Shown: one piece after another, positions 6,242-38,654 of the stretch
How positions within the stretch are numbered: position 1 is the stretch's first letter
How the letters are laid out: the number at the start of each line of letters is the position of its first letter
NCBI GenBank assembly: GCA_964344235.1
Contig: CAYFMJ010000001.1
Location: 288,001 to 352,000, forward strand
Source of the DNA: an uncultured Methanosarcinales archaeon
GTDB taxonomy: Archaea; Nanobdellota; Nanobdellia; Woesearchaeales; GW2011-AR9
Reading direction: 5' to 3'
Length of the DNA stretch: 64,000 bases
Notes under the pieces: model-generated
Databases searched by the model: none
What the model was told of the DNA's origin: nothing
Seen by the model: the letters and a program-made list of their open reading frames with translations, nothing else
Made by a program: the position numbers and the translations under genes

Positions 6242-6263
6242 TGTGTTGAATGTCTGATGGGGA

Positions 6264-6767: not shown

Positions 6768-6831
6768 AAAATGGTCTCGGTTCGACAAGATTTATAAAGA
6801 TTTGGAAAAAGATTTTGGAAATGGTGGTTCT

Positions 6832-9515: not shown

Positions 9516-10542
9516 TGAGGAACAGTACGACCGGTATGTTAGTAATGTTTCCAACGCTGGTTTTGAATATACTTTGCGTTGGCGCGATATTCTTCAACGT
9601 CATTTTGGTTTTCGCTCGCGATGTATCATCGCTAAGGACGAAGAAGGTAAGATTGTAGGGGTTCTGCCATTATTCCAAGCTCGAGGCATATTTGGTAAGA
9701 AGCTCGTTTCTTCTCCATACGCGATTTATACGGGCATGTTGGCAGATAATGGAGTGGCGAGAGAAGAGATGATGCATTTTGCAAAACAGTTGTCGATTCA
9801 GGAACGTGTAAAATTTTGTGAGGTTCGTGAACAGTTTCAAGATGATTCCTATATTAAAAGAGGGTTTAGGGAAAACAGTACTGTGTTCAATTTCTCGCTT
9901 GCCTTATCTTCTGATGTCGATGCCGTCTGGAAGAAATTGCCTAAAGGGAGCGTGCGTTGGGGGGTCAAGAAAGCCCAAAAGAGTGGCTTGCAGTGGCGTT
10001 GTGGTATTAGTGAGCGGGAGCTGCAAGGTTTTTATGCTTTGTTTCTTCAGACACGCAAACTGCGGGGTGTTCCGGGATATCCTTATGCCTATTTCAAAGA
10101 AATTCTCTCGACATTTGGGGAGAATGCGAGAATTTACGTTACTTCATACGAGAATAAACCTGTTGCTACAATCTTCTTGATATATCACAAGAATGAAGTG
10201 CGATATGCTTTTGCAGGAGCAGTTCACGATAAAACAATCATGCAATTGCAACCGTACCATCTTATAATGTGGGAAGCAATTAAAGATGCGTGTAACAGAG
10301 GGTATACAACGTTTAACTTTGGTGGTGCTACACTGCAAACAAATGATGGCGGGTTGTATAATTTTAAGAAGAGATGGGCAGATACGGTTGGGAAAGCGTA
10401 TTCGTATTATTTCCTTCATACAATGAAAGAAGTTCCCTCAAGCGACACTGCATTTTTTGCTTTGGCCACGAAACTATGGAGGAAGCTGCCTCTGTCGGTT
10501 GTTGATACGTTAAGTCCTTTTGTGATACGGCAATTTGTTTAA
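9487..10542 (+). CDS. FemAB-like GNAT acyl/aminoacyltransferase
   Basis: GVLPLF, VRWGVKKAQKSGL, FNFGG, GLYNFKKRW. Confidence 0.8.
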   Translation: MVCSLLAKDDEEQYDRYVSNVSNAGFEYTLRWRDILQRHFGFRSRCIIAKDEEGKIVGVLPLFQARGIFGKKLVSSPYAIYTGMLADNGVAREEMMHFAKQLSIQERVKFCEVREQFQDDSYIKRGFRENSTVFNFSLALSSDVDAVWKKLPKGSVRWGVKKAQKSGLQWRCGISERELQGFYALFLQTRKLRGVPGYPYAYFKEILSTFGENARIYVTSYENKPVATIFLIYHKNEVRYAFAGAVHDKTIMQLQPYHLIMWEAIKDACNRGYTTFNFGGATLQTNDGGLYNFKKRWADTVGKAYSYYFLHTMKEVPSSDTAFFALATKLWRKLPLSVVDTLSPFVIRQFV

Positions 10543-10571: not shown

Positions 10572-11621
10572 ATGAAATATACAATAACAATGTTAAGTGA
10601 GGAGGATCACGAGCTGTATGCGCAGTTTGTTAGTAGCTGCCCTGATGCCCTTTATGAACATTCTTTAGCTGTGAAAGATTTGGTTCAAAGATATTTTAAG
10701 TTTGAACCGAGATATATTGTGGCGAAGAATTCAGTTGGACAAATTGTTGGGGCTTTGCCGTTGTTTAAAGCGAAGAGTTTTGTGGAAGGAACACGCCTCG
10801 TTTCTATCCCATTTTTTCCATATGGCGGCGTGATTGGGGAGAGTGATGAATGTAAACGTTTGCTGTTAGAGGAAGCCAAGAAGTTGTCAAGTACAAGTAA
10901 GTTCTTGGAAATGCGTCAACATGGTGAACTCTCGGCGGAAGTTGCTCGAGGTTTTGTAAGACAAGCCCCGATTATTAATTTTTATCTTGACTTGAAAGAG
11001 TCCGAGGAGGAGATGTTACAATCGTTACATAAAAGTGTGCGATATGATATTCGAAAAGCACAGAAAAATAATTTGCAATTTTCTATGGGGGATACAACCA
11101 AGTTGCTCAATGATTTTTATGATGTGTATCTGAACACGCGGAAGAGAAGAGGTGTACCGGCGTGGCCAATGGGGCTCTTTAAAGAGGCATTGAAAACATG
11201 TGATACAAAAGTTGCGGTGACATACCATGAAGGAAAACCAATTGCTGGTTGCTTTTTATTTTTTGATAAAAAGACAATTGAATATGCTTTTGCGGGGACT
11301 GACTATCGGCACTCTGCGCTTTGTCCATATTATCTCTTACTGTGGGAGATTATTTGTTATGGAATCAAGCAAGGTTACACTGTTTTAGAGTTGGGTGGAA
11401 CGACTAAAGTTATGAATGAGGGGAATATGTATTCTTTCAAGAAACGGTGGAGTACGAAAACTGAAGAGATCCCTTACTACTTTTATGCACGTGAGGAGAA
11501 AAATATTCCTGTGTTACAGAATTCATTTAAAGTGTATACTCTCTATGGTAAAGTTTGGAGTTTACTGCCGAAGTGGTTGATAAAAAAAATAAGTCCGCCA
11601 ATTATACGGCAATTTAGTTGA
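10572..11621 (+). CDS. FemAB-like GNAT acyl/aminoacyltransferase (tandem paralog)
   Basis: GALPLF, VRYDIRKAQKNNL, LELGG, MYSFKKRW. Confidence 0.8.
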   Translation: MKYTITMLSEEDHELYAQFVSSCPDALYEHSLAVKDLVQRYFKFEPRYIVAKNSVGQIVGALPLFKAKSFVEGTRLVSIPFFPYGGVIGESDECKRLLLEEAKKLSSTSKFLEMRQHGELSAEVARGFVRQAPIINFYLDLKESEEEMLQSLHKSVRYDIRKAQKNNLQFSMGDTTKLLNDFYDVYLNTRKRRGVPAWPMGLFKEALKTCDTKVAVTYHEGKPIAGCFLFFDKKTIEYAFAGTDYRHSALCPYYLLLWEIICYGIKQGYTVLELGGTTKVMNEGNMYSFKKRWSTKTEEIPYYFYAREEKNIPVLQNSFKVYTLYGKVWSLLPKWLIKKISPPIIRQFS

Positions 11622-16755: not shown

Positions 16756-17688
16756 TTATATTCTCTCTAATTCTGGGATCATTTCTGTTGGATCAACCCC
16801 ATAGCTTTCTGCCATGCAGATGAATGTTGGAGAAACGGTGGCAGGGAATCTTGTGTGGTTATCAAGTAGATGTGCTATGCCTGCTGCATCTGCTGTTACC
16901 GAAGCACCTTGGGAATATTTCCCCGAGTGTATCCCCTGGCGCATTTGTTCTGCAGTAACGTCAATTTCTGCATAAGTCGTACGCGTAATATCTAAGTCGT
17001 GAATTGAACGAATAATGGCAGTAACTCTAACATCTTGTACTCTCGCACTTAAACTTGCCACTCCTGGAAACTCTAGGGAAAGCATTCTTTTAACATGGTC
17101 TTCGAATGTAGAGCTATCGGCTGTCACTTCATCAACGAAGAGAGAAGGGTCGCCGCTGATTCGTCCACCACTTGGGAAAGACCAACTGTTTGTGTAGCAA
17201 TCAACGTTGTTGGTTCTCACTCCGTATAAGAACTGCCTATCACTTGTTCTGATAAGTGTGCTCACTGCAAAAGCGGTTGCTAGCTCATTGCCATTTGGAA
17301 CTATTGCTCGTAGCGCTCTATCCGAGACTTTTCGATATCTGTAAGGGCGATGTTGCGCAGTCCATGTATCATCAATCCCATTCACGGGAGTCGTTCCATG
17401 GTGTTGTCTGTAGTCTGTCTTTCCAAGCCGTATTGCTGTTGTGTCGCTTTCTGGTTGGATTCCATTGAAATATACTAATGGGCCATTGAACAACGTTTTC
17501 CTTGCAACTTCTGCTTCTGCCTTTTTCTCTTTCCACACTCGCTCTATCCTCTTTTTTACTGCTGGTGTTGGGGTAAAATCTTCTCCTCGTTCAAATACTA
17601 GGTTTTCACCTAAGGTAAGGTCACTTGCGTCAAGTTCGGTGATCCAAGAACGTGAGCGATCTCGGGAGTCAAGATGGTATAGGGGCAT
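16756..17688 (-). CDS. Hypothetical protein, possible degenerate Nudix fold
   Basis: 310 aa ORF; FNGPLV, LGKTDYRQH, YGVRTNNV, WSFPSGG resemble Nudix-like proteins, but there is no canonical Nudix box. Confidence 0.45.
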   Translation of the reverse strand: MPLYHLDSRDRSRSWITELDASDLTLGENLVFERGEDFTPTPAVKKRIERVWKEKKAEAEVARKTLFNGPLVYFNGIQPESDTTAIRLGKTDYRQHHGTTPVNGIDDTWTAQHRPYRYRKVSDRALRAIVPNGNELATAFAVSTLIRTSDRQFLYGVRTNNVDCYTNSWSFPSGGRISGDPSLFVDEVTADSSTFEDHVKRMLSLEFPGVASLSARVQDVRVTAIIRSIHDLDITRTTYAEIDVTAEQMRQGIHSGKYSQGASVTADAAGIAHLLDNHTRFPATVSPTFICMAESYGVDPTEMIPELERI

Positions 17689-22462: not shown

Positions 22463-23380
22463 TTAAAATTTATTTTTTAAGAATTTTAGGTCAACTTCTT
22501 CACGCCAGAATAAATTTCTTGCTTTGGCAAATGTGTTAAGGTTCTGCAGGTATAGACTCTGTTTTTGTGGGTCTTTAAACTCGTTCTCTAAGTTTGCTAT
22601 TTCTTCTAGTTCAACTTTAATTGTATCTTTATAGTCTTGATTTGTAAGGTGTTTTAGCATTGACTTATATTGTTGCTTTTTTAGATTAATCCCATATGAA
22701 ATATATTTTGCATTAAAGCTTGTTTTCATTCCAGCAATATTACTATCATATTGGCGATAATAAGTATAGCTATTTTTGAGGAGTTTTGCTTTATGACCCT
22801 GTGCTAAGAGAGAGGAAAAAATCCACCAATCAGTTACTACTAAGTTTGAAGTTATTGGAAATATTTTTTCAAGAAGATTAGCCCTTATTGCAGTGTTATT
22901 TAGGCCACAAAGGTTTTTTTTAATGTTATCCACAAATGAAATCGTATCTGACTTAAGTTTTTCTTGATACCAAGGTCCACTTTTTTGTTTTCCATTTTCA
23001 TATGTTGGAATGAGATCAGTAAATACAATTTCATCTGTTTGGAGAGCTTCTCTTGTTTTAGCTACTCGGTCTTTGTCAAAATAATCATCAGTATCGGTGA
23101 AAATAATCACTTTAACATTTTCCTTTTTAACTTTCTCTTGGAGTGAAGGGATAATGTATTGCCAAAGAGTGGGACCTTTCGCTCCCGGGTTTGGAACTGG
23201 AAGAATTTGAACTTTTATTTTAGAGTTTATTCGTGCAGTGACCTCTTCTGTGTTAGGATAATTATTGTCAAAAAGCCAAAGTTCGAAGTTAGTATCGGTT
23301 TGGTCATTAATGGCTTTTCTGTATTGGGGCCAAAATGGGCGCATTATGGGATACAGAACGCCAACAACTATTAATTTCAT
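22463..23380 (-). CDS. GT2-like glycosyltransferase
   Basis: QTDTNFELWLFDN, IIFTDTDDYF (DxD), YYRQYDSN. Confidence 0.68.
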   Translation of the reverse strand: MKLIVVGVLYPIMRPFWPQYRKAINDQTDTNFELWLFDNNYPNTEEVTARINSKIKVQILPVPNPGAKGPTLWQYIIPSLQEKVKKENVKVIIFTDTDDYFDKDRVAKTREALQTDEIVFTDLIPTYENGKQKSGPWYQEKLKSDTISFVDNIKKNLCGLNNTAIRANLLEKIFPITSNLVVTDWWIFSSLLAQGHKAKLLKNSYTYYRQYDSNIAGMKTSFNAKYISYGINLKKQQYKSMLKHLTNQDYKDTIKVELEEIANLENEFKDPQKQSLYLQNLNTFAKARNLFWREEVDLKFLKNKF

Positions 23381-24072
23381 TTTCTCTTTCTCTCGTCTTT
23401 AAAATTGACTGGCTTTTGATAACGAAATAATCTAGCATTGGGCATTACCATTACAGAGTTATCTTCAACGTCGGTTTGAATAATTGCTCCCGCTCCCGTT
23501 AGAACATTGTTCCCAATCTTTCTTTTTTCGATAATGCGAGTGCCCATACCAAAGAAGTTATAGTTACCAATAGTAACATTTCCACCAATGATTACACTCG
23601 TACAGAAATTACAGAAACTTCCAATATACGTGTCGTGTCCAATGACACAATAGCGGTTGAAGTAGTTAAAATCTCCAATTTCAATATCTGTTGTAAGGTT
23701 CGTTCCAACATTTATAATATTTCCCTCTCCGAACTTTACTCCTTCGGCGTCATACAAAACTGAGGGATGAATTAAGTTTGGAAATGTAATGGAACACTGA
23801 TTATACTGTTTAATCTTTTGTACAATTGTGGCCGTGGTTCGAGGTGTTCCGTTGGCGACGGCGATACAAATCTCGCTTTTACCCCGGAGGGCAGCATCGA
23901 GTGATGGAAATACTGGTAAGCCGTACACTTTTCTTCCTTTAAATTTCTTAGAGTTGTCAACAAATCCTAAGAGGTTGTAACCACCAATCTGTTTAATAAG
24001 CCAGGCAATGTGACGCCCTTGGCCTCCTGCACAGTAAACGATAATATCTAATGGGGGAACGGTCTCGACCAT
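23377..24072 (-). CDS. NeuD/PglD-family hexapeptide sugar acyltransferase
   Basis: CAGGQGR, LLGFVD, NLIHPS, IGHDTYIG, hexapeptide repeats. Confidence 0.85.
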   Translation of the reverse strand: MVETVPPLDIIVYCAGGQGRHIAWLIKQIGGYNLLGFVDNSKKFKGRKVYGLPVFPSLDAALRGKSEICIAVANGTPRTTATIVQKIKQYNQCSITFPNLIHPSVLYDAEGVKFGEGNIINVGTNLTTDIEIGDFNYFNRYCVIGHDTYIGSFCNFCTSVIIGGNVTIGNYNFFGMGTRIIEKRKIGNNVLTGAGAIIQTDVEDNSVMVMPNARLFRYQKPVNFKDERKRK

Positions 24073-24166
24073 GTGCTAGTTGAGGATATTCTCTTTTTAA
24101 TTCTTATGAAAAATATGTTGTTTATTTCTACACAACCTTCTATGGAGTTGCTATCTTCTTAGAAAA

Positions 24167-24445
24167 TTAGACTTTTTTTGTAAGAATAAAGAGGTTATCT
24201 TTGATAGGCCTGAAGCCTTTTTGCTTTAAGAAAATGATAATTGATTTAATTGAAGTTAGTCTCGAGACTTCTGCTGGCGGAATGTTTTCTTGTAAGATCT
24301 TTTCAAGGCTGGTAATAATATCAAAGTGAGCAATGGAGTCCCATTGAGTATGAGTATCGCATGACGTCTCTATGGTGATCTGGCTAGAAGTAAGGTGTAA
24401 CACTTTCTGAAATAACTGTTTTAAATTAATCGAGCTTATTACCAT
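24167..24445 (-). CDS. Acyl carrier protein
   Basis: QWDSIAH (phosphopantetheine Ser motif); about 92 aa from ATG 24445, preceded by GGTGA; overlaps the end of the adenylation enzyme. Confidence 0.8.
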   Translation of the reverse strand: MVISSINLKQLFQKVLHLTSSQITIETSCDTHTQWDSIAHFDIITSLEKILQENIPPAEVSRLTSIKSIIIFLKQKGFRPIKDNLFILTKKV

Positions 24446-25958
24446 TGTATTCACCTGCAAGAAACAGTTCACGTACTTTGTTTCGTAAAATCTTCCCCCC
24501 TCCCCCGAGAGGGAAATCATCGATGCTATATATCTCCTCTGGACATTTGTAACTGGCTAAACTATTATGACAAAATTGAACTACACTTTGAGGCTGCCCC
24601 TGCTTGCTCGATTCTTTAATTTTAACAAGCCCGATTATTTTTTGATTTCTTATCGGATCTGGGATGGCAATGGTCACTGCATTCTCAACTGTGGGGTATG
24701 CATAAAGACATTCATCGACCTCTCTAAGGGAAACGTTTTTTCCCCCGACAATTGCAATGTCCTTCTTTCTTCCTTTTAAAAAAAGGAATTCTTCCTCATC
24801 TACATAACCTAAATCTCCCGTGTCAAACCAGCTATCTTTGATGACTCTGTTAGTGTTTTCTATATCATCAAGGTACCCTGGCATTAAGCCTTCACAGCGC
24901 ACCCAAATTTCACCTTCTTGTTTGGGTTGTGTAATGACATTTCCTTGCGTGTCTCGTATTTGATATTCCGTCATAACCGGTTTGCCGACAGACCCTTTCT
25001 TACGCTTCTTTCGCCCATTAACAAACAGCTGACCAGCGGTCTCACTCATCCCGAGAGAGTCAATCATTGGAAGGTAATAAATTGCTTCAAACTTTTCTTG
25101 TACTGAAGCAGGCAGAGGCGCAGAAGATGTACGAACGAAATCCATGGAGGATATATCAAACTCTTCTTTTTGTATTTCTGAGGCGACAATGATAGAATAA
25201 TGTGTTGGGGTAGCGTTCATCCATGTAGTTTTATATTGGTCCATTAAGTTGAACGTAGTAAAAGGAGTGAACATGCCTTGTTGGTAAACTGCACTACCAC
25301 CTGTTCTTATAACAGACCAGATTGTAAAGATTTGTCCATTTGTACCAGAAAAAGGAGTTAGTGCGAGCAAACGATCTTTTGGTTTTAGTTCTAAAGAAAT
25401 TTCCAAAGATTTTGCTCCCCAAAGAACATTTTTATGGGTTGATATGATCCCCTTCGGGCTTCCAGTACTTCCAGAAGTATAAAGACAAATGGCGGGGTCA
25501 TCTTCCTCTATAACTCGATCGCTCTTTGATGTAATACCAGATGAAATGGCTTTATCAATGGGGGCGATAAGCACCTGTGTCATTGAGTTCTTAACTTTTT
25601 GGGCGAATGAAATATGTTTGGGGTGAACAAGCAAGCAGTCTGCTCGGTATTTTTTGATTAGTTCTTCTTTTTCATCGTCAAGTAATTTTTCATCAGCCCA
25701 TAGAACTAATGAACCGTGTGTGATCGCTCCAAAGTAAGCTAAGTAACCAGCTTTAGAGCGCGGTGATAGAATTAAAAGACGACTCTTTTTTGGAATATTG
25801 TTTCTGTCTAAATAGTTTGCTATAACATTAGATTTCTCAAAGAGCTCTCTATAACTAATTTCTTCGTTATCTTCTGGAAAAATCGCACAAATTTTATTTT
25901 GATACTTTTGGGCTTGTATCTTCACTAATGCAGGGAGTGAGCGAATTGACATAATCAT
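24426..25958 (-). CDS. AMP-forming acyl-CoA/acyl-ACP synthetase (class I adenylate-forming enzyme)
   Basis: YTSGSTGSPKG, LGMSET, WFDTGDLG, GRKKD, GGKILR. Confidence 0.9.
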   Translation of the reverse strand: MIMSIRSLPALVKIQAQKYQNKICAIFPEDNEEISYRELFEKSNVIANYLDRNNIPKKSRLLILSPRSKAGYLAYFGAITHGSLVLWADEKLLDDEKEELIKKYRADCLLVHPKHISFAQKVKNSMTQVLIAPIDKAISSGITSKSDRVIEEDDPAICLYTSGSTGSPKGIISTHKNVLWGAKSLEISLELKPKDRLLALTPFSGTNGQIFTIWSVIRTGGSAVYQQGMFTPFTTFNLMDQYKTTWMNATPTHYSIIVASEIQKEEFDISSMDFVRTSSAPLPASVQEKFEAIYYLPMIDSLGMSETAGQLFVNGRKKRKKGSVGKPVMTEYQIRDTQGNVITQPKQEGEIWVRCEGLMPGYLDDIENTNRVIKDSWFDTGDLGYVDEEEFLFLKGRKKDIAIVGGKNVSLREVDECLYAYPTVENAVTIAIPDPIRNQKIIGLVKIKESSKQGQPQSVVQFCHNSLASYKCPEEIYSIDDFPLGGGGKILRNKVRELFLAGEYNGNKLD

Positions 25959-26040
25959 TTGAAAAGTTTAGTTTTTTTAAATCTTTAGAAACTCTTTTTG
26001 TGAAGACGAGTCTTTATTGGGCACCTTGTTTTAAGATCTT

Positions 26041-26424
26041 TTACTTTCTTACGTACTTCTTGGAAACTATTGCAAATGCAAGCGCATATTCTGGAGTATG
26101 TGATAAAGAGACCTTTACCTGAAAACGATTTTGTATTTCGGGATAATGGATGAATACATTTGGTGAGCCATCTTCTTTTTTTTTTACTTCAATACATTTG
26201 AGGTCACCTTTAAAATCAATCTTTAGAACAAGGCCCATCAAAGCTTTAAAAACTGCTTCTTTGGTTGCAAAACGGGCTGCTAGATGTTGAGCTGGGTCTG
26301 TTTTTGAAAAGCAATAATCAAGCTCAGCCTGCCAGAATATTTTTGTGAGAAAGTTTTTATTTGATAATTTCTCTTTAAATCTGGAGATTGCACAAATATC
26401 TGTTCCAATAGCGAGGACTTCCAT
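26041..26424 (-). CDS. acpS: Holo-ACP synthase (AcpS-type phosphopantetheinyl transferase)
   Basis: IGTDI, LAARFATKEAVFKAL, DGSP, VSLSHT. Confidence 0.92.
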   Translation of the reverse strand: MEVLAIGTDICAISRFKEKLSNKNFLTKIFWQAELDYCFSKTDPAQHLAARFATKEAVFKALMGLVLKIDFKGDLKCIEVKKKEDGSPNVFIHYPEIQNRFQVKVSLSHTPEYALAFAIVSKKYVRK

Positions 26425-26650: not shown

Positions 26651-27433
26651 ATGGAACAAGAAATCTATTTTCCAACATCAACATCCGATTTGTTATTTGG
26701 AAAGCTTCAATGTCCAGAAGTTGGTGATTTTGGGCCAAAAAGGCGAAAGCTTGTTATTCTATCTCACGGTTATGGTTCGCATTTAGATGCTCGGACAACG
26801 CAAATTGGTGTCGTTGGTGCTCTCTATAAGCGGGGAATTGATACTTTTAGATTTTCGTTCTGGGGAAGCAGCCATTCTGCAGGCAATTTTGAGAAGAATA
26901 CCCTTACGCAATATATCTCTGACCTTGAGGCTGCAGTGCGTTATGCGCGAGAAGTTCTGGGATATCACCACATAAGTTTGTATGGCTTTAGTTGTGGAGG
27001 TACTATTTCGCTCCATGTTGCAGCCAAAGATCCTACTATCGAAAAGGTTGCAGTTGTCGCTCCAGTTCTTGATTATCCTGCACAAAGAAGACGTAGACTT
27101 GGTGATCTTGTAATGAAGCACTGGGAGGAGAGTGGAAAGTTAGAGTTTCCCAATTATGGTGAGGAAAAACATGTTCATTATTACTTCATAGAAGATGCTT
27201 ACCAGCATATTCTCTTAGATGAAGAAGCGACGGTTAATAGGTTGTTAGAAATCTCCCAACCAGTATTACTTCTCCATGGGACGGCGGATTCAGAAGTCCC
27301 CTTTTCGCAAAGTCTTCGTGCTCACGAATCCTTGCCTTCTTCGGAAGTTAGATTATTTGAGGACGATGATCATTGGCTTAGAGCGAATCGTCAGGAGGTT
27401 GATGGGTACATTGCAGAATGGTTGTCTCAGTGA
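26651..27433 (+). CDS. Alpha/beta hydrolase (esterase/thioesterase-like)
   Basis: SHGYGS oxyanion motif, GFSCGG nucleophile elbow, HGTADSEVP, DDDH. Confidence 0.85.
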   Translation: MEQEIYFPTSTSDLLFGKLQCPEVGDFGPKRRKLVILSHGYGSHLDARTTQIGVVGALYKRGIDTFRFSFWGSSHSAGNFEKNTLTQYISDLEAAVRYAREVLGYHHISLYGFSCGGTISLHVAAKDPTIEKVAVVAPVLDYPAQRRRRLGDLVMKHWEESGKLEFPNYGEEKHVHYYFIEDAYQHILLDEEATVNRLLEISQPVLLLHGTADSEVPFSQSLRAHESLPSSEVRLFEDDDHWLRANRQEVDGYIAEWLSQ

Positions 27434-27436
27434 ACC

Positions 27437-27997
27437 TTATCCTTGTTTCTTAATCTTTCTAATATCTATATAATCTATCCCTAAATTCTTAGCAGCATTC
27501 TCATCAGATGTTGAATTTCCGATAAAAAGAATTTTTGGGATTGCAGTGTCGAAATATCTTCTAATTATCAAAAACCCTTCTGAGTTTGGTTTTGTAAAAT
27601 TAACTTGGTCTTTACCAACAATTAATCCAATTCTTTTTCCAATGGCGAATTTTTGCAAGACTTCTCTGATAACTGAAGACTGATTTGATGACCAGACCAC
27701 CTGTGGCCCAAGGAATTCTTTCATGATACTCTTGCACTTCTCATTTTCTTTAAAACCATTAACTCCTTGCGATTCGAACTGGTAGGCGATTTCATTAAAC
27801 TCTTTCTTCCCTACTTCTCCTAATCTTTCATACACAGTGCTTGCACCACCCGAGTAACTCGTGAAATCAATATCCATGTTGTGTTTCTCTAAGAAATGGT
27901 TATGTAATGCCGACCGAAGAGCGGCCCAATCAACATCTAATTTTCCGATTGTGCCATCAAAGTCCAAGATCAGCAAGTCATATCGTTGGAAATCCAT
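27437..27997 (-). CDS. HAD-superfamily phosphatase
   Basis: LDFDGTI, WSSN, KPNSEG, FIGNSTSD. Confidence 0.82.
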   Translation of the reverse strand: MDFQRYDLLILDFDGTIGKLDVDWAALRSALHNHFLEKHNMDIDFTSYSGGASTVYERLGEVGKKEFNEIAYQFESQGVNGFKENEKCKSIMKEFLGPQVVWSSNQSSVIREVLQKFAIGKRIGLIVGKDQVNFTKPNSEGFLIIRRYFDTAIPKILFIGNSTSDENAAKNLGIDYIDIRKIKKQG

Positions 27998-29009
27998 TTT
28001 CTTGGTATGTTTTTATTGCGTTCTTTAAATGTGTTATCTTTCGTTGCAATCCAGGAAGCAATTCATCAATAAAATCACTATTGAGCGAATAGTTTAATAA
28101 ATCTTCCACCCATATACGGATTGCGACAATGGGGATACATTCTTTTTCTTGTGCTGTTAAAGGTAATTCTTGGTTGTATGTTTCAATGTAGTGGGTTGCT
28201 CTTTCTTGATTAAATGGTATGATGTTGCCTTCTGCGTTCCTCGTTGAGAAACACCACATCGCGTAAACTACATCTCTGATATGAGGAATATACATCATCT
28301 CGTCTGGGTCAAGCAGTGCACTTACCTCGCCTTTTTGATAAATAACGTTTCCTGGCCAGATGTCTTTATGCGCAACGATTTTTGGTAAAGCAGGGTATTG
28401 TTTTTTATCAACCAATGCTATTTGTTGCTCAACAAGCGGGAGCACTTCTTGTACTCGCTGACGAAACATGCTTGCTGTAGCGCTTTTTGCTTTCTTGCGT
28501 ACTTCTTGTAACGTTACCTGTAACCGTTCCCGGCGGAGGAAAATGCTTCTTGTCTCTTTTATGTGCATAACATTGGTGGGTGCCATCGTAGTGAGTGTGC
28601 GGTTTAGTGTTGCATGGAACTTTGCCATGCTTTGGACTTCAGGTATTATGCTTTGAAATGAACTGCCTTCAATAAAAGGGTAGAGAACGTAATAGTTCTC
28701 ATTATACTTGACATAGATAGTATTTTCATTTGTTGTTAGATAGCTGACGAGTGGAATATTCTCGTTCATTACATGCTGCATGAAATGTTGCAAGCCTTTA
28801 AAGTAGTGTTCTGGAGTGCATAATGCAAAATATTCTTTAGGGATTTCTTTCAGCACGAATTTTGTTGTTCCCTCTGTTAAAAGATGAAGCGAACTTTTTG
28901 CATTAAATTTTATGTGAGTTGATGAACTAAGATTTTTTAGGTTTTTAGAATATGATCTGTTGATGTTTTGTAGCAAATTTTGGGATATCATTGTTTTTGA
29001 TTTATACAA
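27978..29009 (-). CDS. APH/type II homoserine kinase-like phosphotransferase
   Basis: FVLKE, AHKDIWPGNV (Brenner-like motif), LLDPD. Confidence 0.78.
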   Translation of the reverse strand: MYKSKTMISQNLLQNINRSYSKNLKNLSSSTHIKFNAKSSLHLLTEGTTKFVLKEIPKEYFALCTPEHYFKGLQHFMQHVMNENIPLVSYLTTNENTIYVKYNENYYVLYPFIEGSSFQSIIPEVQSMAKFHATLNRTLTTMAPTNVMHIKETRSIFLRRERLQVTLQEVRKKAKSATASMFRQRVQEVLPLVEQQIALVDKKQYPALPKIVAHKDIWPGNVIYQKGEVSALLDPDEMMYIPHIRDVVYAMWCFSTRNAEGNIIPFNQERATHYIETYNQELPLTAQEKECIPIVAIRIWVEDLLNYSLNSDFIDELLPGLQRKITHLKNAIKTYQENGFPTI

Positions 29010-29094: not shown

Positions 29095-30141
29095 ATGGAC
29101 TCAGAGATATATCAGCGGTTGACAAATGAGACGAAACCTTTTGTTCTGGCGGAAATTGGTTCAAATCACATGGCCAGTATGGAGACTGCTAAAGAGCTTA
29201 TTGATGCAGCGGTTGAAGCTGGCTGTGATGGTGTTAAGTTTCAATCACTTGGTTGGAATGATTGGAATTCGAAAACGGTTTTTCAAAAAAGACGTAACTA
29301 TACTGCTCCTGGCTTGCTAGTGGTTGGGCTAGAGGCCACTAATAAGTTACTTGAACTCTCAAAAGAGCAACATCACGAATTAAAAAGGTATTGTGATGAG
29401 AAAGGCATTCTTTTTTCTTCAACTCCCGCAACTAACGCCCAAATAGATATGCTTGTTGATGAGCTGAAAGTTCCATTCTTAAAAATTGCTTCAATGGATT
29501 TAACAAACCACGATTTCCTACGCTATGCTGCATCGAAGGGCGTTCCGATTGTTCTTTCAACGGGGATGGCACTACTTCATGAAATTGCCGAGGCTGTTGA
29601 AGTAATTAAGGGAACCGGTAATGATCAATTGATTCTTCTACATTGTGTGGCAACATATCCTACCCCTCACGATTGGGTTGATCTCCAAAACATCTCCATG
29701 TTAAAAGATACTTTTGGTTTTCCAATTGGCTTTTCAGATCACACTTTGACAGCGGATATCCCAATTGCATCAGTGGCGTTGGGTGCTTGTTTTATTGAGA
29801 AACATTTTATGTTAGAAGGGCAGGAGTGTCGTGAAAAGAAAGTATCCATTACTCCCTCACAAATGAAGCGATTGGTAGAAGGGGCACATAATGTTGGTAT
29901 GGCAATGGGAACGTATCATAGACGCTTAACTGAGCAGGAAGTAATACGAAGAGGATGGATGCGTCGAGGGATTTTGGTTCGAAAAGATTTACCTGCAGGA
30001 CATATTCTTACGAGGGAAGATTTAGTCTTTAAGAGACCAAGTGGTAAGATCCCCGCCAAGGATTGGAAGTATGTTGTTGGGAGAAAGCTTAAGGAGGCAA
30101 GGGAAGCAGATGATGTTCTTGGTTTAGAGGATTTTGAGTGA
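29095..30141 (+). CDS. neuB: Nonulosonic acid (N-acylneuraminate-type) synthase with SAF domain
   Basis: AEIGSNH, VKFQ, KIASMD, LSTGM, LHCVATYP, GFSDHT, IEKHF, FKRP. Confidence 0.92.
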   Translation: MDSEIYQRLTNETKPFVLAEIGSNHMASMETAKELIDAAVEAGCDGVKFQSLGWNDWNSKTVFQKRRNYTAPGLLVVGLEATNKLLELSKEQHHELKRYCDEKGILFSSTPATNAQIDMLVDELKVPFLKIASMDLTNHDFLRYAASKGVPIVLSTGMALLHEIAEAVEVIKGTGNDQLILLHCVATYPTPHDWVDLQNISMLKDTFGFPIGFSDHTLTADIPIASVALGACFIEKHFMLEGQECREKKVSITPSQMKRLVEGAHNVGMAMGTYHRRLTEQEVIRRGWMRRGILVRKDLPAGHILTREDLVFKRPSGKIPAKDWKYVVGRKLKEAREADDVLGLEDFE

Positions 30142-30279: not shown

Positions 30280-31386
30280 ATGAATATACTTGTTACTGGA
30301 ACGCACAGAGAAGCGACAAACACCCTCACTCCTGTTGTAAAAGAATTGGTGCGAAGGGGTCATGATGTGACGGTTTATGCAACAGGGAATGAGCGGGAAG
30401 CGGCAGGATTTAATGGACTTGAATATGAACAGCAGATCCCTACTTCTGATCAATACATAGTGTTAGTTCAAGGTTATGATCTTGTTGTCGCAGGCGTGTC
30501 AGGGCCACAAACTCCAGATGGATATGTCATTCGCGCCGCAAGGGATAGAGGAATACCTGTTGTTGGTGTTGTTGGGCAGAATCGAGTGTTTAATGTTCGT
30601 TTTGGTACTGTTGATGATTTACCTGATCATATTACTGTTCCAGGGGAAGATTCATACGATTTAGTGAGGGAAGCTGTCGGTGAATGTCTGGCAACGGAAA
30701 TAATCCGAAGAGCGGTTCCGGTTGGCTTTCCAGCGTTTGATCATTACGCAGCAACGCGTGAGCGTTTTACTTCTAAACGGCGAGAAGCATTTGTTGCTGA
30801 ACTTGAATTGGAAGGGCCGTTTGTTTTTTACCCCTCTGCAAATTTAGACCCAAACACCGACTACATGCGGAGATCGACACGAGATCCTGTTGACAAACGG
30901 CAACGGTTTGAGTATGCTCTACGGCTTACTGAAGAAACATTTAGAGTGGCGTCAGACTTAGGTTTGCATATGGTTGTAAAGCCTCATCCTGGTGAGCAGA
31001 CAAGACCCAGACACACTTTAGGGCTTGCGGAACGATTTGGCGTTACATATTTGAGCTACGATCGGTGTGGGACCCAGGATTTACTCCTTGCATCTGCTGT
31101 AGTAGTTGCAGGAGAGAGCGGCTGTTTAAATGAAGGGTGCCTCTTTGATAGAAATACAGGGGCGTTGTTTCCTGGATTGGATGAGGATGTTGTACCCCAA
31201 TTCTCTGCGACGAAAACGGGAGCGATTCCTTACACTTTCGAATGGGAGGGTATTGGAAGGATCCTTACTGAGCTTACTTCCTCAGATGAAGATGTACAAC
31301 GGAGACTTGCTGATCAAAGAAAAAGGTTTTCTGTTGATGGAAAAGGCGCACAGCGTGTTGCAGATTTAGTTGAGAGAGTGCTCTGA
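30280..31386 (+). CDS. GT-B-fold protein of unknown function (epimerase/transferase-like)
   Basis: MNILVTG...ELVRRGHDVTVY, VGFPAFD, VKPHPGE, DGKGAQRVADL (similar to the DGxAxxRI tail of UDP-GlcNAc 2-epimerase-like folds). Confidence 0.55.
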   Translation: MNILVTGTHREATNTLTPVVKELVRRGHDVTVYATGNEREAAGFNGLEYEQQIPTSDQYIVLVQGYDLVVAGVSGPQTPDGYVIRAARDRGIPVVGVVGQNRVFNVRFGTVDDLPDHITVPGEDSYDLVREAVGECLATEIIRRAVPVGFPAFDHYAATRERFTSKRREAFVAELELEGPFVFYPSANLDPNTDYMRRSTRDPVDKRQRFEYALRLTEETFRVASDLGLHMVVKPHPGEQTRPRHTLGLAERFGVTYLSYDRCGTQDLLLASAVVVAGESGCLNEGCLFDRNTGALFPGLDEDVVPQFSATKTGAIPYTFEWEGIGRILTELTSSDEDVQRRLADQRKRFSVDGKGAQRVADLVERVL

Positions 31387-31414: not shown

Positions 31415-32488
31415 TTAGGGGCGAGTTGGTATTACTGGTTGCCCTGTTTTTGATCTGAAAATATCTGTATGCCCAACATAGTCTATCTTTCCTGTCTTTA
31501 TCATTTGGAAAGCAAGATCTTTGAATCTAGCACTCCACTCTCTACGAAATCCTTCTGCTCCATAGTAGTTCGCAGCAGAGCCTACGGTGTGAGCTACACG
31601 TAAAAGAAGTTCTAATTGCTGTGTTAGCGGACCTTCATGGTTGTACGTTCCTCCCTCACTTTGATGGCCCCTTCGTAACGCTTCTTGTCCAGCAATCAAT
31701 GTTTCATTGTCAAAATAGCTAGTGAACAGTGAATGGACGAGGTACATTTCTTGTTCCACCGGTCCTGCTTGACTCCATTCAACATCGGGAAAACTGGGAT
31801 TACCTGCACTGTCAACGAGAATATTTCTTGGATGTAAATCAGCTATTGTGAACACGGGGGTGATATGGCTTTCAACTTCTACTATACTCGCAAGGCTTCT
31901 CTCGAGAAAACGATTTACTTCTTCTACTTCCCTTTCAGTGTATGCTGGGGATTGTGTCAATCTGGCTAATCGATAAACAATAAATTGTTTTGCTCTTGCT
32001 GTGAACTGTGGGGGGCCTTGCACACCTTCGGGATTGATGTCACCAAATTTTTCGTATGTTTTGCGGTGGGCTTTTGCTAATTCCATCCCTAGTCTTTCTA
32101 AAGAGGCAAGAAAAACGCCTAATGAATAATCGTGTTCTCTCAAATATTGATCCCATGTCTTTCCAGTGAGTTTTTCTGCAACAAGGAATCGTTCATCGTC
32201 AACTTTGAAAGGACCTCTCATTTTTGGAGTACGAATCCCTAATTCATTCCTGAGAAAGTTACACAGATAGCCTTCTCTCTCTAGGGAAATTACTCCCCCG
32301 TAATGTGAATCTCTTTTCACCCTGTGCTTGTCTAATTTTGTAGCTCTTTCAAATCGTACGACAACTTCTTCACCGGAATCTAACGTTACCTCAAAGTTAT
32401 CATGAGATCGACCTTCAGAAATTGCGGTAATGGTGTCAACAGAATGTCCTGCTTGTTCAAGTAGTCTCTGAGCACGTTGTTGGTCCAT
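31415..32488 (-). CDS. APH-family phosphotransferase
   Basis: EGRSHDNF, VVVRF, IADLHPRNILVD, FPDVE. Confidence 0.72.
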   Translation of the reverse strand: MDQQRAQRLLEQAGHSVDTITAISEGRSHDNFEVTLDSGEEVVVRFERATKLDKHRVKRDSHYGGVISLEREGYLCNFLRNELGIRTPKMRGPFKVDDERFLVAEKLTGKTWDQYLREHDYSLGVFLASLERLGMELAKAHRKTYEKFGDINPEGVQGPPQFTARAKQFIVYRLARLTQSPAYTEREVEEVNRFLERSLASIVEVESHITPVFTIADLHPRNILVDSAGNPSFPDVEWSQAGPVEQEMYLVHSLFTSYFDNETLIAGQEALRRGHQSEGGTYNHEGPLTQQLELLLRVAHTVGSAANYYGAEGFRREWSARFKDLAFQMIKTGKIDYVGHTDIFRSKTGQPVIPTRP

Positions 32489-33180
32489 TATCCTCTTTTC
32501 CGCATTAAGAATTCTGTTATGTCAAAGTCGTGTTGTGTATCAATGTCGGTTGAATGCTCAACCGGCATAATATAAGGGTACGTTTTATCCGGGTACTCTC
32601 CACTTTCATCAAAAAGAACAGATGGTTTGAACACAAACATATTCCCATTGTGAAGGTACACTTTGTCGTTGTCTTGTCGGTTCCCGAAGACTCCCTTTCT
32701 GTTGCTCCTAGGTCTTATAGTTCCATCGTCTTGAATTATCTTAATTCTGTTAGGGTGGACATCAGTTTCACACACTCCTATGACAGCATTTGCATTGTTT
32801 TTGAGAAAAATCTCAATGGCATTGTCAATATCCTGGGCTGTCCGCAAGGGTGAAGTTGGCTGTAAAATAACAACAATGTCTGGGTTGTACCCTGTCTCTT
32901 TCTGTAATCGGTCAATTGTGTAACGGTAGGCATCTGTTGCATCTGCATCATCTGTTGCTAATTCAGCTGGCCGCATAAATGGAATTTCGATGTCATAATG
33001 AGAACAAACTTGAGAGATCTCATTACTGTCAGTTGATAAAACCAGTTTGTTGATAAACTTTGATTTATTCGCTGCTTCAATAGAATAGGCAACCAGCGGT
33101 TTGCCATTTAGGGGCTTAATGTTCTTTCCAGGAAGGCCTTTTGATCCTCCGCGAGCTGGAATAATTGCTAAAATATTCAT
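32488..33180 (-). CDS. neuA: Acylneuraminate cytidylyltransferase (CMP-nonulosonate synthetase)
   Basis: IIPARGGSKGLPGKN, LSTDS, LQPTSPLR, DIDTQHDF. Confidence 0.92.
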   Translation of the reverse strand: MNILAIIPARGGSKGLPGKNIKPLNGKPLVAYSIEAANKSKFINKLVLSTDSNEISQVCSHYDIEIPFMRPAELATDDADATDAYRYTIDRLQKETGYNPDIVVILQPTSPLRTAQDIDNAIEIFLKNNANAVIGVCETDVHPNRIKIIQDDGTIRPRSNRKGVFGNRQDNDKVYLHNGNMFVFKPSVLFDESGEYPDKTYPYIMPVEHSTDIDTQHDFDITEFLMRKRG

Positions 33181-36223: not shown

Positions 36224-37150
36224 ATGACAAAAACAATGAGAGACCAACTTCGTGCTGATGGTGAATTGGCGTTGGCAGGCCTTGTTCATCCAGAGATTAT
36301 TCGTGGTGACCCTGCGTCTTGTACAGCAGAATTTAGCAAATTAATTGTTAATCTTTGCCTCCGTGTGGAAGATGATGATTATGTACGACGTATTACAGAA
36401 GACGATGTTGATCGAGTGATGCTTCATGCAGATTCCCAGATTGGAAGACCAGAAGCCCACCGTTCTCACATTATCACAACAGGGTATTTGTTCCAAAGTC
36501 TCACAGCAGCTCTTCTTGATACACATCCAGACTTAGATTTACCCCATCCGGATATTGCGCGTGCTATGGGTTGGCTACACGATCTTAATATGATGTTTAG
36601 TAGTTATCAACGAGGAGGTCAATTGTCGAAGGAATTAGATTTGTTTTTCTTAGGTGCTATGAATGGCTGGACACGGATAGCAGATCATATGGCGATGCAT
36701 AGTGCTTATTTTGAGATTGGACAGCTTCTTACTGGGGAGTATCAATTTCCAGAAAAAAATGAAGCGTATGAAGGTATGCGGGAAGTTCTAAGGGGAGGGG
36801 GCCCATTATCACTTACTGCTATCACAGAGCGGTTTAGAGGATATCATCGAGGTACTGATAACATGCCGCTACTCGCCTTAACAGTGGTTGATTATATGGA
36901 ACGTGGTTTAAGAACCTTTGATCCTACGAAGATAGAAGCGGACTTTGCTGCACGATCGGAGGATGTTCTTTGGCGCTACCATGGGAAACATGTAGAAGCA
37001 GAAATGGCGCCACCGCCTCTTGGCGTTGCGTTAATGTCGGGGGGATTAACGAGAATAAAAGGGTACAAAGACATAGTTAGAAAACTTCTTTCTGATGATA
37101 TTGAAGCAATTGATAGGTTACGAGAAACAACTCATCTGTTTAAGAAATGA
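36224..37150 (+). CDS. Hypothetical HD-domain-like protein
   Basis: HRSH...GWLHDL...VVDY; own TATA-like box near 36182-36190. Confidence 0.55.
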   Translation: MTKTMRDQLRADGELALAGLVHPEIIRGDPASCTAEFSKLIVNLCLRVEDDDYVRRITEDDVDRVMLHADSQIGRPEAHRSHIITTGYLFQSLTAALLDTHPDLDLPHPDIARAMGWLHDLNMMFSSYQRGGQLSKELDLFFLGAMNGWTRIADHMAMHSAYFEIGQLLTGEYQFPEKNEAYEGMREVLRGGGPLSLTAITERFRGYHRGTDNMPLLALTVVDYMERGLRTFDPTKIEADFAARSEDVLWRYHGKHVEAEMAPPPLGVALMSGGLTRIKGYKDIVRKLLSDDIEAIDRLRETTHLFKK

Positions 37151-37255: not shown

Positions 37256-38557
37256 ATGAAAAAAGTATATGTCGCAATGAGTGCAGACTTCTTACACGAA
37301 GGTCATATGAACATCCTAGACGAAGCTCGGAAATTAGGAGAAGTAACAATAGGATTATTGACAGATGAGGCTGTAGCTACATATAAAAGAATGCCCCTTT
37401 TGAGTTATGAACAACGGAAGAGAATTTTTCGAAATATTGTTGGCGTTTGTGATGTTATACCACAGCATACTTTAGATTATGAAGAAAATATTCGTCAGTT
37501 GAAGCCAGACTTTGTTGTTCATAGTGATGATTGGAAAACGGGAATACAGAAGCCGATCCGGGAAAAGGTAGTTGCCACTTTACAAGAATGGGGAGGAATA
37601 CTGATTGAACCAAGATATACTGAAGGGATTTCCTCTTCGAAAATGGTTGGTCAAATTCGGGAGAGGGGCACTACTCCTGATGTACGAAGAAATATGCTGC
37701 GTCGATTGTTAGCAGCAAAACCATTAGTAAGAGTTCTAGAAGCTCATAATGGTCTCACTGGGTTGATTGTTGAAAAAACAAAAATACAGAATCACTTAGG
37801 ACATATTAAAGATTTTGACGGAATGTGGTTAAGCAGTTTGACGCATTCTACCTCTAAGGGAAAACCAGATATTCAATACGTTGATATTACATCCACTGGT
37901 CAGACCATTAGTGAAATTTTTGAAGTTTCTACCAAACCACTAATTGTTGATGCGGATAATGGTGGGCTTATCGAACATTTTCGTTTTACTGTGAGAACGC
38001 TGGAAAGGCTTGGTGTATCTGCAGTTATTATTGAAGATAAAGTGGGAGCAAAACGGAACTCGTTATTTGGAACTGATGTTAAGCAGACACAAGATAGTAT
38101 TAAAGGCTTTTCAGAAAAGATTTCGGAGGGTAAGAAATCTCTAGTTTCTGATGATTTTATGATTATTGCTAGGATTGAAAGTTTCATTTTGAAGAAGGGT
38201 CTGGAGGACGCTCTAACCCGGGCAAGAGCGTACATAGAAGCAGGAGCAGATGCTATTATGATTCATAGTAAAGAGAATTCACCGTCGGAGATTCTTTCTT
38301 TCTGTGAAGAGTATAAAAGGTTTAGCACGAGAGTTCCATTGGTTGCTGTCCCATCTTCGTATAGTGAGATTACTGAGGAGCAATTAATAGAAGCAGGGGT
38401 GAATGTTGTGATCTATGCAAATCACTTACTAAGAAGTGCGTATCCAGCAATGGTTAGGGCGGCGGAGTCTATATTACAACATGGGCGCTGTCATGAAGCG
38501 AGCAAGAACTGTATGGAAATTAAAGAAATTCTCAAATTGATACCTAATGGAGAGTAG
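37256..38557 (+). CDS. pepM: Cytidylyltransferase-phosphoenolpyruvate mutase fusion (AepX/Fom1 architecture)
   Basis: N-terminal MSADFLHEGH, HSDDW, YTEGISS; C-terminal EAHNGLTG, MWLSSL, VDADNGG, IIEDKVGAKRNSL (PepM EDKxxxKxNS signature), ARIES, YANHLLRS. Confidence 0.93.
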   Translation: MKKVYVAMSADFLHEGHMNILDEARKLGEVTIGLLTDEAVATYKRMPLLSYEQRKRIFRNIVGVCDVIPQHTLDYEENIRQLKPDFVVHSDDWKTGIQKPIREKVVATLQEWGGILIEPRYTEGISSSKMVGQIRERGTTPDVRRNMLRRLLAAKPLVRVLEAHNGLTGLIVEKTKIQNHLGHIKDFDGMWLSSLTHSTSKGKPDIQYVDITSTGQTISEIFEVSTKPLIVDADNGGLIEHFRFTVRTLERLGVSAVIIEDKVGAKRNSLFGTDVKQTQDSIKGFSEKISEGKKSLVSDDFMIIARIESFILKKGLEDALTRARAYIEAGADAIMIHSKENSPSEILSFCEEYKRFSTRVPLVAVPSSYSEITEEQLIEAGVNVVIYANHLLRSAYPAMVRAAESILQHGRCHEASKNCMEIKEILKLIPNGE

Positions 38558-38585
38558 AGTACCAATATAGTGGACTAATTTAGAG

Positions 38586-38604
38586 TTCAAAGGTGGCCTT
38601 TGAA
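38586..38604 (+). terminator. Possible hairpin between pepM and the Fe-ADH gene
   Basis: TTCAAAGG-TGG-CCTTTGAA, a perfect 8-bp inverted repeat; function unproven. Confidence 0.3.
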
Positions 38605-38624
38605 ACAATCACTTTTACATATGA

Positions 38625-38632
38625 TTTATAAA
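38625..38632 (+). promoter_or_regulatory. Archaeal TATA-like box upstream of the Fe-ADH gene
   Basis: TTTATAAA ending 22 nt before ATG 38655. Confidence 0.45.
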
Positions 38633-38654
38633 GAGGAATACGTGTCGAACCATT

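Follow-up and report, generated by a model that had tools for sequence, protein, structure and literature searches.

A candidate carrier-protein module for glycan acylation in an uncultured Woesearchaeales archaeon

Here, we describe a cassette of five genes in a 64,000-nucleotide stretch of DNA, hereafter the window, from an uncultured archaeon assigned to the Woesearchaeales (GenBank assembly GCA_964344235.1, contig CAYFMJ010000001.1, positions 288,001 to 352,000 of the forward strand). The cassette, at window positions 22463-26424, encodes a group I 4'-phosphopantetheinyl transferase (AcpS), an adenylating ligase of the ANL superfamily, a stand-alone acyl carrier protein (ACP), a sugar acyltransferase of the NeuD/PglD/VioB type and a glycosyltransferase of the GT2 family. 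We judge it probable that the cassette is a self-sufficient carrier-protein supply of acyl donors that feeds a nonulosonic-acid (sialic-acid-like) glycan pathway. That an ACP-tethered acyl group is placed on an amino sugar by the NeuD-like enzyme had been suggested by a first-pass annotation of the window. Comparative genomics lends support to this suggestion, as the parts are single-copy in the genome, their order is conserved in related loci, and the NeuD-like enzyme and AcpS appear to be fused in one relative (locus L099).

We infer each chemical step from family chemistry and gene context. AcpS would move the phosphopantetheine arm of coenzyme A (CoA) to Ser37 of the 92-residue ACP, and the ANL ligase would adenylate a small carboxylic acid and thioesterify it onto the holo-ACP. 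The NeuD-like enzyme, with His146 as the general base, would then move the acyl group from the ACP to the amino group of a nucleotide-linked amino sugar. The likeliest acceptor would be the 4-amino group of a 4-amino-4,6-dideoxy-hexosamine made by a DegT-SDR fusion protein encoded in the same island. By the logic of the legionaminic and pseudaminic acid (Leg/Pse) pathways, that nitrogen would become N7 of the nonulosonate, and NeuB and a CMP-transferase would complete and activate the sugar. The coupled GT2 enzyme would act in the assembly of the same glycan.

The genome that holds the window (1.19 Mb, 96% complete) is that of an archaeon, archaeal models being the best of their clans for both the small- and the large-subunit rRNA. 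Genome-wide, AcpS, the carrier-protein (PP-binding) candidate, the ANL enzyme, the PglD-type (PglD_N) transferase and NeuB each occur a single time. With no second copy of any part, the cassette proteins lack other candidate partners in this genome; and because the archaeon has no other phosphopantetheinyl transferase or carrier protein, the module brings its own AcpS. Searches of the 96%-complete genome gave zero matches to the ketosynthase (PF00109), KASIII (PF08541) and condensation (PF00668) domains, while the controls responded. The absence of ketosynthase and condensation domains, which the first-pass annotation had remarked on, thus holds genome-wide, and fatty-acid, polyketide and nonribosomal peptide synthesis were rejected as readings on this ground. 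The PPCS/DFP domain (PF04127), present in 14 of 14 control genomes, was not found in this 96%-complete genome. Since the PPCS gene was not found, the CoA used by AcpS is probably scavenged, and its source would probably lie outside the cell, in a host from which it is taken.

Archaea are usually described as being without ACP-dependent chemistry, and the few archaeal species that hold an ACP and its processing enzymes are reported to have them through horizontal transfer (PMC3533463). A survey of DPANN archaea mentions FabG/I/Z-like genes (PMC10936187). No description of ACP-dependent glycan acylation in archaea was found in the literature that we searched.

The cassette and its five proteins

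The five minus-strand open reading frames (ORFs) are co-oriented and separated by overlaps or short gaps, as the first-pass annotation had described. The GT2 and NeuD-like genes overlap by 4 nt, a gap of 94 nt lies between the NeuD-like gene and that of the ACP, the ACP and ANL genes overlap by 20 nt, and 82 nt separate the ANL gene from acpS. Two motifs that had been picked out in the translations, WDSIAH in the ACP and RFATKEA in AcpS, were located at residues 35-40 and 51-57, respectively. Reading frames and catalytic motifs of the cassette genes are intact, and the GC content of the cassette resembles that of the surrounding island. A scan with sigma-70 promoter and terminator models, which are not applicable to an archaeon, returned 15 sites against 13.3 expected, no more than chance would give.

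AcpS (26041-26424, minus strand, 127 residues) is a single ACPS domain that scores 58 bits against PF01648 (cutoff 25) and 61.8 bits against TIGR00516 (cutoff 59.8). From the structure of Bacillus subtilis AcpS, the motifs G-x-D, (F)A-x-K-E-A-x-x-K and S-x-S-H have roles in Mg2+ and CoA binding. The counterparts in the window protein are GTD at residues 7-9, FATKEAVFKA at residues 52-61 and SLSH near the C terminus.

The ACP (24167-24445, minus strand, 92 residues) is of the WDS[LI]xH type. It was listed as the ORF 24167-24520; its true start codon is the ATG at 24445, which gives the 92 residues of the called protein and from which homologues align. A word-index homology search with the ACP returned the query alone; its relatives came from an exhaustive HMMER scan, which gave 106, mostly of 70-90 residues. 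In an alignment of 67 ACP homologues, Trp35 and Ser37 are invariant and Asp36 is nearly so, with the consensus WDSLxH. The family profile built on these 67 sequences matches solved ACPs (2lml, 3.9e-16; Escherichia coli ACP, about 1e-13). An AlphaFold2 (AF2) model, with a mean predicted local distance difference test (pLDDT) score of 85, shows a four-helix bundle (helices at residues 8-16, 37-51, 57-60 and 66-75) in which Ser37 of the WDSI motif stands at the N terminus of helix II, and the top Foldseek matches of the model are all ACPs (TM 0.65-0.8). Ser37 is thus the predicted site of phosphopantetheine attachment. Three lines of evidence identify this small protein as a probable ACP, namely the profile of its family, its predicted fold and the conserved Trp-Asp-Ser. 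On the contigs of the three closest ACP homologues, each about 1 kb or less, the ACP start overlaps an upstream gene.

The ANL-superfamily ligase (24426-25958, minus strand, 510 residues), the proposed loader of the ACP, matches PF00501 (1.1e-60) and carries the C-terminal AMP-binding_C domain. Its core motifs (YTSGSTGSPKG, GMSET, DTGD, KGRKKD and PLGGGGK, including the A10 lysine) are intact. The best solved relatives are oxalate-CoA ligase, malonate-CoA ligase and FadD13, and the enzyme looks like the acyl-CoA-synthetase type rather than an adenylation domain of a nonribosomal peptide synthetase. The load would therefore more likely be an acyl than an aminoacyl group. We rejected an assignment of the acid on the basis of the ligase sequence, since the oxalate- and malonate-CoA ligases hint only weakly that it is small and possibly dicarboxylic. 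We propose that the carrier protein, not CoA, is the thiol acceptor of the ligase. The gene context bears on this proposal: the ANL stop and the ACP start overlap by 17-20 nt in four loci, namely the window, L031, L035 and L037. Since LuxC/LuxE, a ketosynthase and a reductase are not present, the acid is probably passed on as loaded, without reduction on the carrier. A search for further loci with the ANL protein alone returned only two irrelevant bacterial loci.

The NeuD-like enzyme (23377-24072, minus strand, 231 residues) belongs to the left-handed beta-helix sugar acyltransferases, with a PglD_N domain (PF17836, 32.3 bits) and hexapeptide repeats (Hexapep, PF00132, 37.6 bits). Its best solved relatives are VioB (7txp, 2.6e-23) and PerB (4ea7), and it aligns with both over the full length. 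In the alignment with PerB, the His-Asp pair of that enzyme corresponds to His146 and Asp147, the first of which is invariant across 30 homologues. We take His146 to be the catalytic histidine, equivalent to His141 of PerB and His125 of PglD.

The last gene of the cassette encodes a GT2-family glycosyltransferase of GT-A fold (22463-23380, minus strand, 305 residues). Its match to PF00535 is weak (25.3 bits against a cutoff of 23.3). Its invariant columns include DxDD (D96, D98 and D99), DW and YRQ; the AF2 model has a pLDDT of 91, and its top Foldseek matches are the GT-A enzymes TarS, TarP, RmlT and SpsA. The gene is translationally coupled to the acyltransferase gene, and the order NeuD-like, GT2, NeuB is kept in archaeal and bacterial loci. 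Other roles for this protein were considered and rejected: the ordinary GT2 fold and the DxD motif disfavour a nucleotidyltransferase and a PseG-like hydrolase, although it may conceivably still act as a hydrolase.

Conserved linkage in related loci

The closest homologues of the NeuD-like enzyme are 55-64% identical to it. Among the closest with a long enough contig (57-64% identity, all on marine archaeal contigs), 3 of 3 have a carrier module nearby. The first of these, P0005 (64%; loci L029/L039, 'archaeon SI039_bin19'), stands in the series AcpS, NeuD-like, GT2-like, APH-HAD fusion, NeuB, alpha/beta hydrolase, CMP-transferase and ANL, and the record breaks off within ANL, after which the ACP would be expected. 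At P0007 (61%) the order is CMP-transferase, ANL, an 81-residue ACP and NeuD-like, then AcpS and NeuB, and at P0008 (57%; L037) it is AcpS, CMP-transferase, ANL, ACP and NeuD-like; the ACPs of the latter two loci were confirmed by the family hidden Markov model. The order ANL-ACP-NeuD-like recurs, with AcpS within a few kb and NeuB and/or the CMP-transferase alongside, while the other genes are shuffled. On the tree, the window-type NeuD-like sequences form a clade (SH-aLRT support 100), and the three genes are contiguous in three of the four clade loci with visible context, the window included. The sister group includes a Nanoarchaeia locus with the same block of NeuD-like, GT2-like, NeuB and CMP-transferase genes.

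On this Nanoarchaeia contig (L032/L040), the gene of a beta-keto acid cleavage enzyme (BKACE, PF05853) at 5999-6847 takes the place of ANL, ACP and AcpS. The BKACE family makes acyl-CoA, and this member may offer another way, based on CoA, to provide an unusual acyl donor. Because BKACE replaces the three genes beside the same block, the supply of the acyl donor appears to vary while the transferase block is kept.

In a wider scan, we collected 78 loci with NeuD-like relatives from named genomes, the archaeal ones being labelled archaeon, Nanoarchaeia or Woesearchaeota, and looked for partners within 7 kb. NeuB was found in 22 of them, an ACP of the family in 14, ANL in six and AcpS in three. 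All three loci with AcpS are archaeal, and none of the bacterial loci among the 78 has AcpS within this distance. Having an ACP as a neighbour is a clustered trait on the NeuD-like tree (0 of 500 shuffles gave a value as low). A Bacteroidota clade of PglD-like genes has a neighbouring ACP in 8 of its 8 members; one of these loci, L083, reads Bac_transf, PglD-like, ACP, KASIII, a glyoxalase-type protein, a 527-residue protein with a weak HAD match, a second ACP and a short-chain dehydrogenase/reductase (SDR).

Two of the three archaeal loci with AcpS are from more distant Woesearchaeota, with NeuD-like enzymes of about 30% identity, and bring the parts together in other arrangements. L086 holds NeuD-like, AcpS, ACP, ANL, an Fe-alcohol dehydrogenase (Fe-ADH), LuxE and LuxC. 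In L099, a single ORF of 347 residues (6986-8029, plus strand) contains PglD_N, Hexapep and ACPS domains; ACP, ANL, LuxE and LuxC genes follow it, and NeuC-like and NeuB genes lie upstream. If real, this NeuD-like::AcpS fusion would be, in the manner of a Rosetta stone, the strongest single argument that the transferase works with a carrier.

ACP and AcpS have a patchy distribution in the phylum. AcpS occurs in 32 of 401 high-quality genomes, nearly all of them in the order to which the window belongs; this tally includes four unpublished genomes (G271, G272, G345 and G381) and becomes 28 of 397 without them. AcpS was found in 13 of 61 related genomes, where its neighbours are diverse. In G009 (L016, 8293-14818) it is near a fusion of 2-hydroxyacid dehydrogenase, peptidyl carrier protein (PCP) and ANL, a double ACP, MaoC, an E2-type acyltransferase, an aminotransferase and an SDR. 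The neighbours are ACP, ANL, a Zn-alcohol dehydrogenase and an Antibiotic_NAT-type acyltransferase in G029 (L018, 7724-11599), FkbH-ACP sets in G051 (L021, 7241-10238) and G004 (L022, 4728-9962), and an ANL-PCP-PlsC fusion in G055 (L024, 8337-10784).

The surrounding glycan island

The whole window is given over to glycan biosynthesis, and the genes of the nonulosonate route lie next to the cassette. A NeuB-family nonulosonate synthase (29095-30141, plus strand; PF03102, 4.6e-71) falls short of the equivalog cutoff for NeuB and of that for PseI. A CMP-nonulosonate cytidylyltransferase (32488-33180, minus strand; CTP_transf_3) has PseF as its closest equivalog (157.7 bits). Between 33278 and 35458 on the plus strand, a DegT-type 4-aminotransferase is fused to an SDR dehydratase/epimerase (DegT_DnrJ_EryC1, 1.5e-101; Epimerase, 7e-44), with DesI-, PseC- and LegC-like as well as LegB-like matches. 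This fusion is the likely source of the 4-amino-4,6-dideoxy sugar that would serve as acceptor. Upstream is a set of WbpB/E/D/I-like genes for 2,3-diacetamido sugars. Between them, the genes of the island could plausibly provide a 4-amino-4,6-dideoxy-hexosamine linked to a nucleotide and turn it into a CMP-nonulosonate; for the N-acylation step of such a scheme, no candidate other than the NeuD-like enzyme lies near the nonulosonate genes.

Divergent from acpS is an alpha/beta hydrolase gene (26651-27433, plus strand; Hydrolase_4, Abhydrolase_1), a possible accessory. In L039, the most closely related locus, a near homologue of it (7e-96) has NeuB on one side and the CMP-transferase on the other. 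The hydrolase gene of the window is followed by genes of a HAD phosphatase (27437-27997, minus strand; HAD_2) and an APH-type kinase (27978-29009, minus strand; APH), which overlap by 20 nt beside NeuB and belong to the adjacent nonulosonate route. In L029/L039 the pair is a single fused protein (8646-10301), and in L120 (2747-5033) an APH gene and then a HAD-GNAT fusion adjoin NeuB. Elsewhere among the relatives, it is NeuB that has become joined to another domain, a 2H-phosphoesterase (2_5_RNA_ligase2; L032, 8686-10266; L119, 2517-4130). A second APH gene lies in the NeuB neighbourhood of the window. This pattern of APH, HAD and 2H-phosphoesterase suggests a nonulosonate route through a phosphorylated intermediate, which we do not recognise as a described prokaryotic Leg/Pse pathway.

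Other genes of the window may serve further decoration of the glycan. On the plus strand at 37256-39794, the gene of a phosphoenolpyruvate (PEP) mutase that carries a cytidylyltransferase-like domain at its N terminus precedes that of an Fe-ADH, and the two look like a phosphonate decoration module within the glycan island. This Fe-ADH (38655-39794), adjoining the PEP mutase gene and thus outside the cassette, is the only one in the window. Three FemAB/Acetyltransf_6-type genes (9487-10542, 10572-11621 and 55909-56961, all plus strand) possibly serve the aminoacyl-tRNA-dependent addition of amino acids to the glycan. Two B12-binding radical SAM enzymes among the glycan genes (2386-4098, minus strand; 46208-47917, plus strand) are candidates for C-methylation or other unusual tailoring of a sugar or phosphonate. 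Three ORFs of 308-368 residues are without a Pfam or NCBIfam match (30280-31386, plus strand; 16756-17688, minus strand; 36224-37150, plus strand), the first of them lying between NeuB and the second APH gene.

Known systems, alternative readings and significance

The cassette has counterparts in bacterial glycan loci. In Vibrio cholerae O1, the wbeK-O (rfbK-O) genes, described by Stroeher, Morona and co-workers in 1995, are said to encode an ACP, the AMP-ligase WbeL, an Fe-ADH, LuxC- and LuxE-like proteins and a hexapeptide acyltransferase. The window shares with this system a small dedicated ACP, an AMP-forming ligase and a hexapeptide-repeat acyltransferase within a glycan locus, as well as the proposed N-acylation of a 4-amino-4,6-dideoxy sugar. 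The likeness is closer in L086, which has the full gene set including Fe-ADH, and in L099, which has LuxE and LuxC; both of these loci add AcpS and a NeuD-like enzyme. In contrast, the genome of the window gave zero matches to LuxC and LuxE (PF05893, PF04443), the cassette has no Fe-ADH and has its own AcpS, and its context is an archaeal nonulosonate pathway rather than a bacterial perosamine O-antigen. We therefore rejected membership of the tetronate cassettes, as LuxC and LuxE were not found in the genome. V. cholerae O1 carries tetronate as the N-acyl group of its perosamine, and a normal O1 antigen requires wbeL (PMC3441752).

In Flavobacterium psychrophilum, the PglD homologue WfpG is predicted to move a 3,5-dihydroxyhexanoyl group from the ACP WfpD onto UDP-Qui2NAc4N (PMC6519341). 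Here too a PglD-family transferase has a private ACP and is predicted to bring a non-acetyl acyl group to a 4-amino group, and the architecture of wfpC-G is also seen in the Bacteroidota locus L083. However, ketosynthases and a ketoreductase build the chain there, whereas in the window one ligase would load a ready-made acid; the bacterial loci lack an AcpS of their own, and the acceptor pathway of the window leads to a nonulosonate. Pseudaminic-acid islands of Aeromonas hold an ACP, an AMP-ligase, LuxE, LuxC and a GT2 enzyme (PMC7874193). In the group II polar-flagellin islands, as in the window, the ACP (orf1) and the AMP-ligase (orf3) stand among the sugar genes, in this case pse genes, and are followed by a conserved GT-A/GT2 enzyme, Fgi-1. 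These islands differ in having LuxE, LuxC, a reductase (orf2) and a GNAT-type PseH, and neither a NeuD-like enzyme nor AcpS is described there. These bacterial parallels to the cassette, of the kind that the first-pass annotation had cited as established for O-antigen loci, have been published as predictions.

Among solved proteins, the best relative of the window ACP is the GmACP3-type holo-ACP of Geobacter metallireducens (2lml), with which it has the W-D-S-L-x-H motif in common. The identity is 27%, and the window ACP differs in being basic, archaeal and provided with its own AcpS. GmACP3 has reportedly been linked to lipopolysaccharide biosynthesis by its gene context. In the Dlt system, a stand-alone ANL ligase (DltA) loads a small dedicated carrier protein (DltC) for the decoration of a cell-surface polymer. 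The pairing of a stand-alone ANL with a small dedicated carrier for surface decoration is common to both; the cassette differs in that MBOAT and DltD are not seen in it, that its ligase is acyl-CoA-synthetase-like, and that a soluble acyltransferase of beta-helix type is proposed to act on a sugar nucleotide in the cytoplasm. The Dlt partners MBOAT (DltB) and DltD were also absent among the annotated genes of the window, no genome-wide search having been made. In comparison with these systems, the cassette is an archaeal version of a module so far predicted only in bacteria, and a minimal one, with ligase, carrier and transferase, no tailoring enzymes and its own AcpS.

Several observations weigh against an ACP-dependent N-acylation. 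The single-sequence score of the ACP lies below the Pfam gathering threshold (PF00550, 17 bits against 20.8), and the protein is basic, with an isoelectric point (pI) of 9.25 against a family median of 4.65. The core of the ACP (residues 1-78) has a pI of 6.8, and the C-terminal tail of about 14 residues is modelled with low confidence. A ligase that resembles acyl-CoA synthetases could release acyl-CoA. The NeuD-like enzyme scores about 6 bits short of the TIGR03570 cutoff (154.7 against 160.8), and nothing in its sequence shows an ACP docking site. The NeuD enzymes of E. coli and group B Streptococcus (GBS) are O-acetyltransferases, so that O-acylation is possible. As for the gene linkage, 5.5 kb separate ANL and the NeuD-like gene in L039, the locus most closely related to the window, and the L099 fusion comes from a co-assembled metagenome-assembled genome and could be an artefact of assembly or a frameshift. 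A NeuD-like gene was near AcpS in 0 of the 12 loci from GTDB relatives (12-16 kb around each), and AcpS in this group therefore serves several different modules. AcpS marks a family of interchangeable carrier-protein modules, and the ligase-ACP-NeuD set of the window is one of them.

This diversity of AcpS partners fits another reading, that the NeuD-like enzyme is an ordinary N-acetyltransferase of the LegH/PglD type that uses acetyl-CoA, while AcpS, ANL and ACP form a separate trio whose acyl group a different enzyme, such as the alpha/beta hydrolase, would pass to some other acceptor, be it another glycan position, a lipid or a protein. To our knowledge, every characterised NeuD/PglD/PerB/VioB enzyme uses acyl-CoA, and VioB and PerB are the best relatives of the NeuD-like enzyme in the PDB; the partners of AcpS in related genomes include E2-type, Antibiotic_NAT, GNAT and PlsC acyltransferases and FkbH; and the hydrolase is conserved in L039. 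We nevertheless regard this reading as unlikely. Apart from the NeuD-like enzyme, no acyltransferase encoded in the window is linked to the trio in other genomes, whereas ANL, ACP and NeuD are contiguous in three of the four clade loci with visible context and NeuD-like and AcpS are joined in the L099 fusion, and the BKACE swap in Nanoarchaeia suggests that the NeuD-like enzyme is the user of a variable donor supply.

If the module is ACP-dependent, its product could still be an ester: the NeuD-like enzyme would then O-acylate the finished nonulosonate, or another hydroxyl, like the NeuD of E. coli K1 and GBS. The name of TIGR03570 spans both NeuD O-acetyltransferases and PglB/VioB N-acetyltransferases, and APH, HAD and the 2H-phosphoesterase::NeuB fusions are suggestive of an intermediate that is phosphorylated and 9-hydroxylated, as opposed to a 9-deoxy sugar. 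We find O-acylation improbable, since the nearest relatives of known structure are N-acetyltransferases with 4-amino-4,6-dideoxy sugars as substrates, the island has the DesI/PseC/LegC-like aminotransferase::SDR (with separate DegT-type and SDR genes in homologous loci), and no other N-acyltransferase for that amine is available near the nonulosonate genes. There is very little, in our view, to be said for the cassette being the remnant of a recent transfer from bacteria that is non-functional in the archaeon. The patchy occurrence of ACP and AcpS (32 of 401 genomes), the attribution of archaeal ACPs to horizontal transfer (PMC3533463) and the atypically basic ACP would fit such an origin. However, motifs and frames are intact, the GC content is like that of the surrounding island, and cassettes of 55-64% identity with the same partners persist in several archaeal contigs, which argues for selection.

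Returning to the carrier-protein supply of acyl donors that we favour, a bolder extension is possible but doubtful. The clade may consist of true acyl-ACP-dependent sugar N-acyltransferases, an activity never demonstrated in the family, and CoA-auxotrophic DPANN archaea may have adopted private kits of AcpS and ACP that reuse one scavenged arm. If this were true, carrier-protein chemistry in these archaea would serve solely the diversification of surface glycans, and a pantetheine arm fixed to a protein would be reused for glycan acylation in place of a free pool of acyl-CoA. The use of acyl-ACP by PglD/NeuD-type enzymes has been a prediction in the genetics of bacterial O-antigens and flagellin glycans since 1995; four small, easily expressed proteins (AcpS, ACP, the ligase and the transferase) could put it to the test.

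We would like to emphasise that an archaeon of symbiont type, with a genome of just over a megabase, maintains a carrier-protein system of its own, complete in all its parts, for which the decoration of a sialic-acid-like surface sugar is the only plausible use. Across its relatives, AcpS-marked modules would supply acyl donors for glycans in several forms, including ligase, FkbH and tetronate-type sets and fusions of ligase, carrier and acyltransferase. This suggests a greater chemical variety in the surface glycans of such host-dependent cells than in the archaeal N-glycans known so far.

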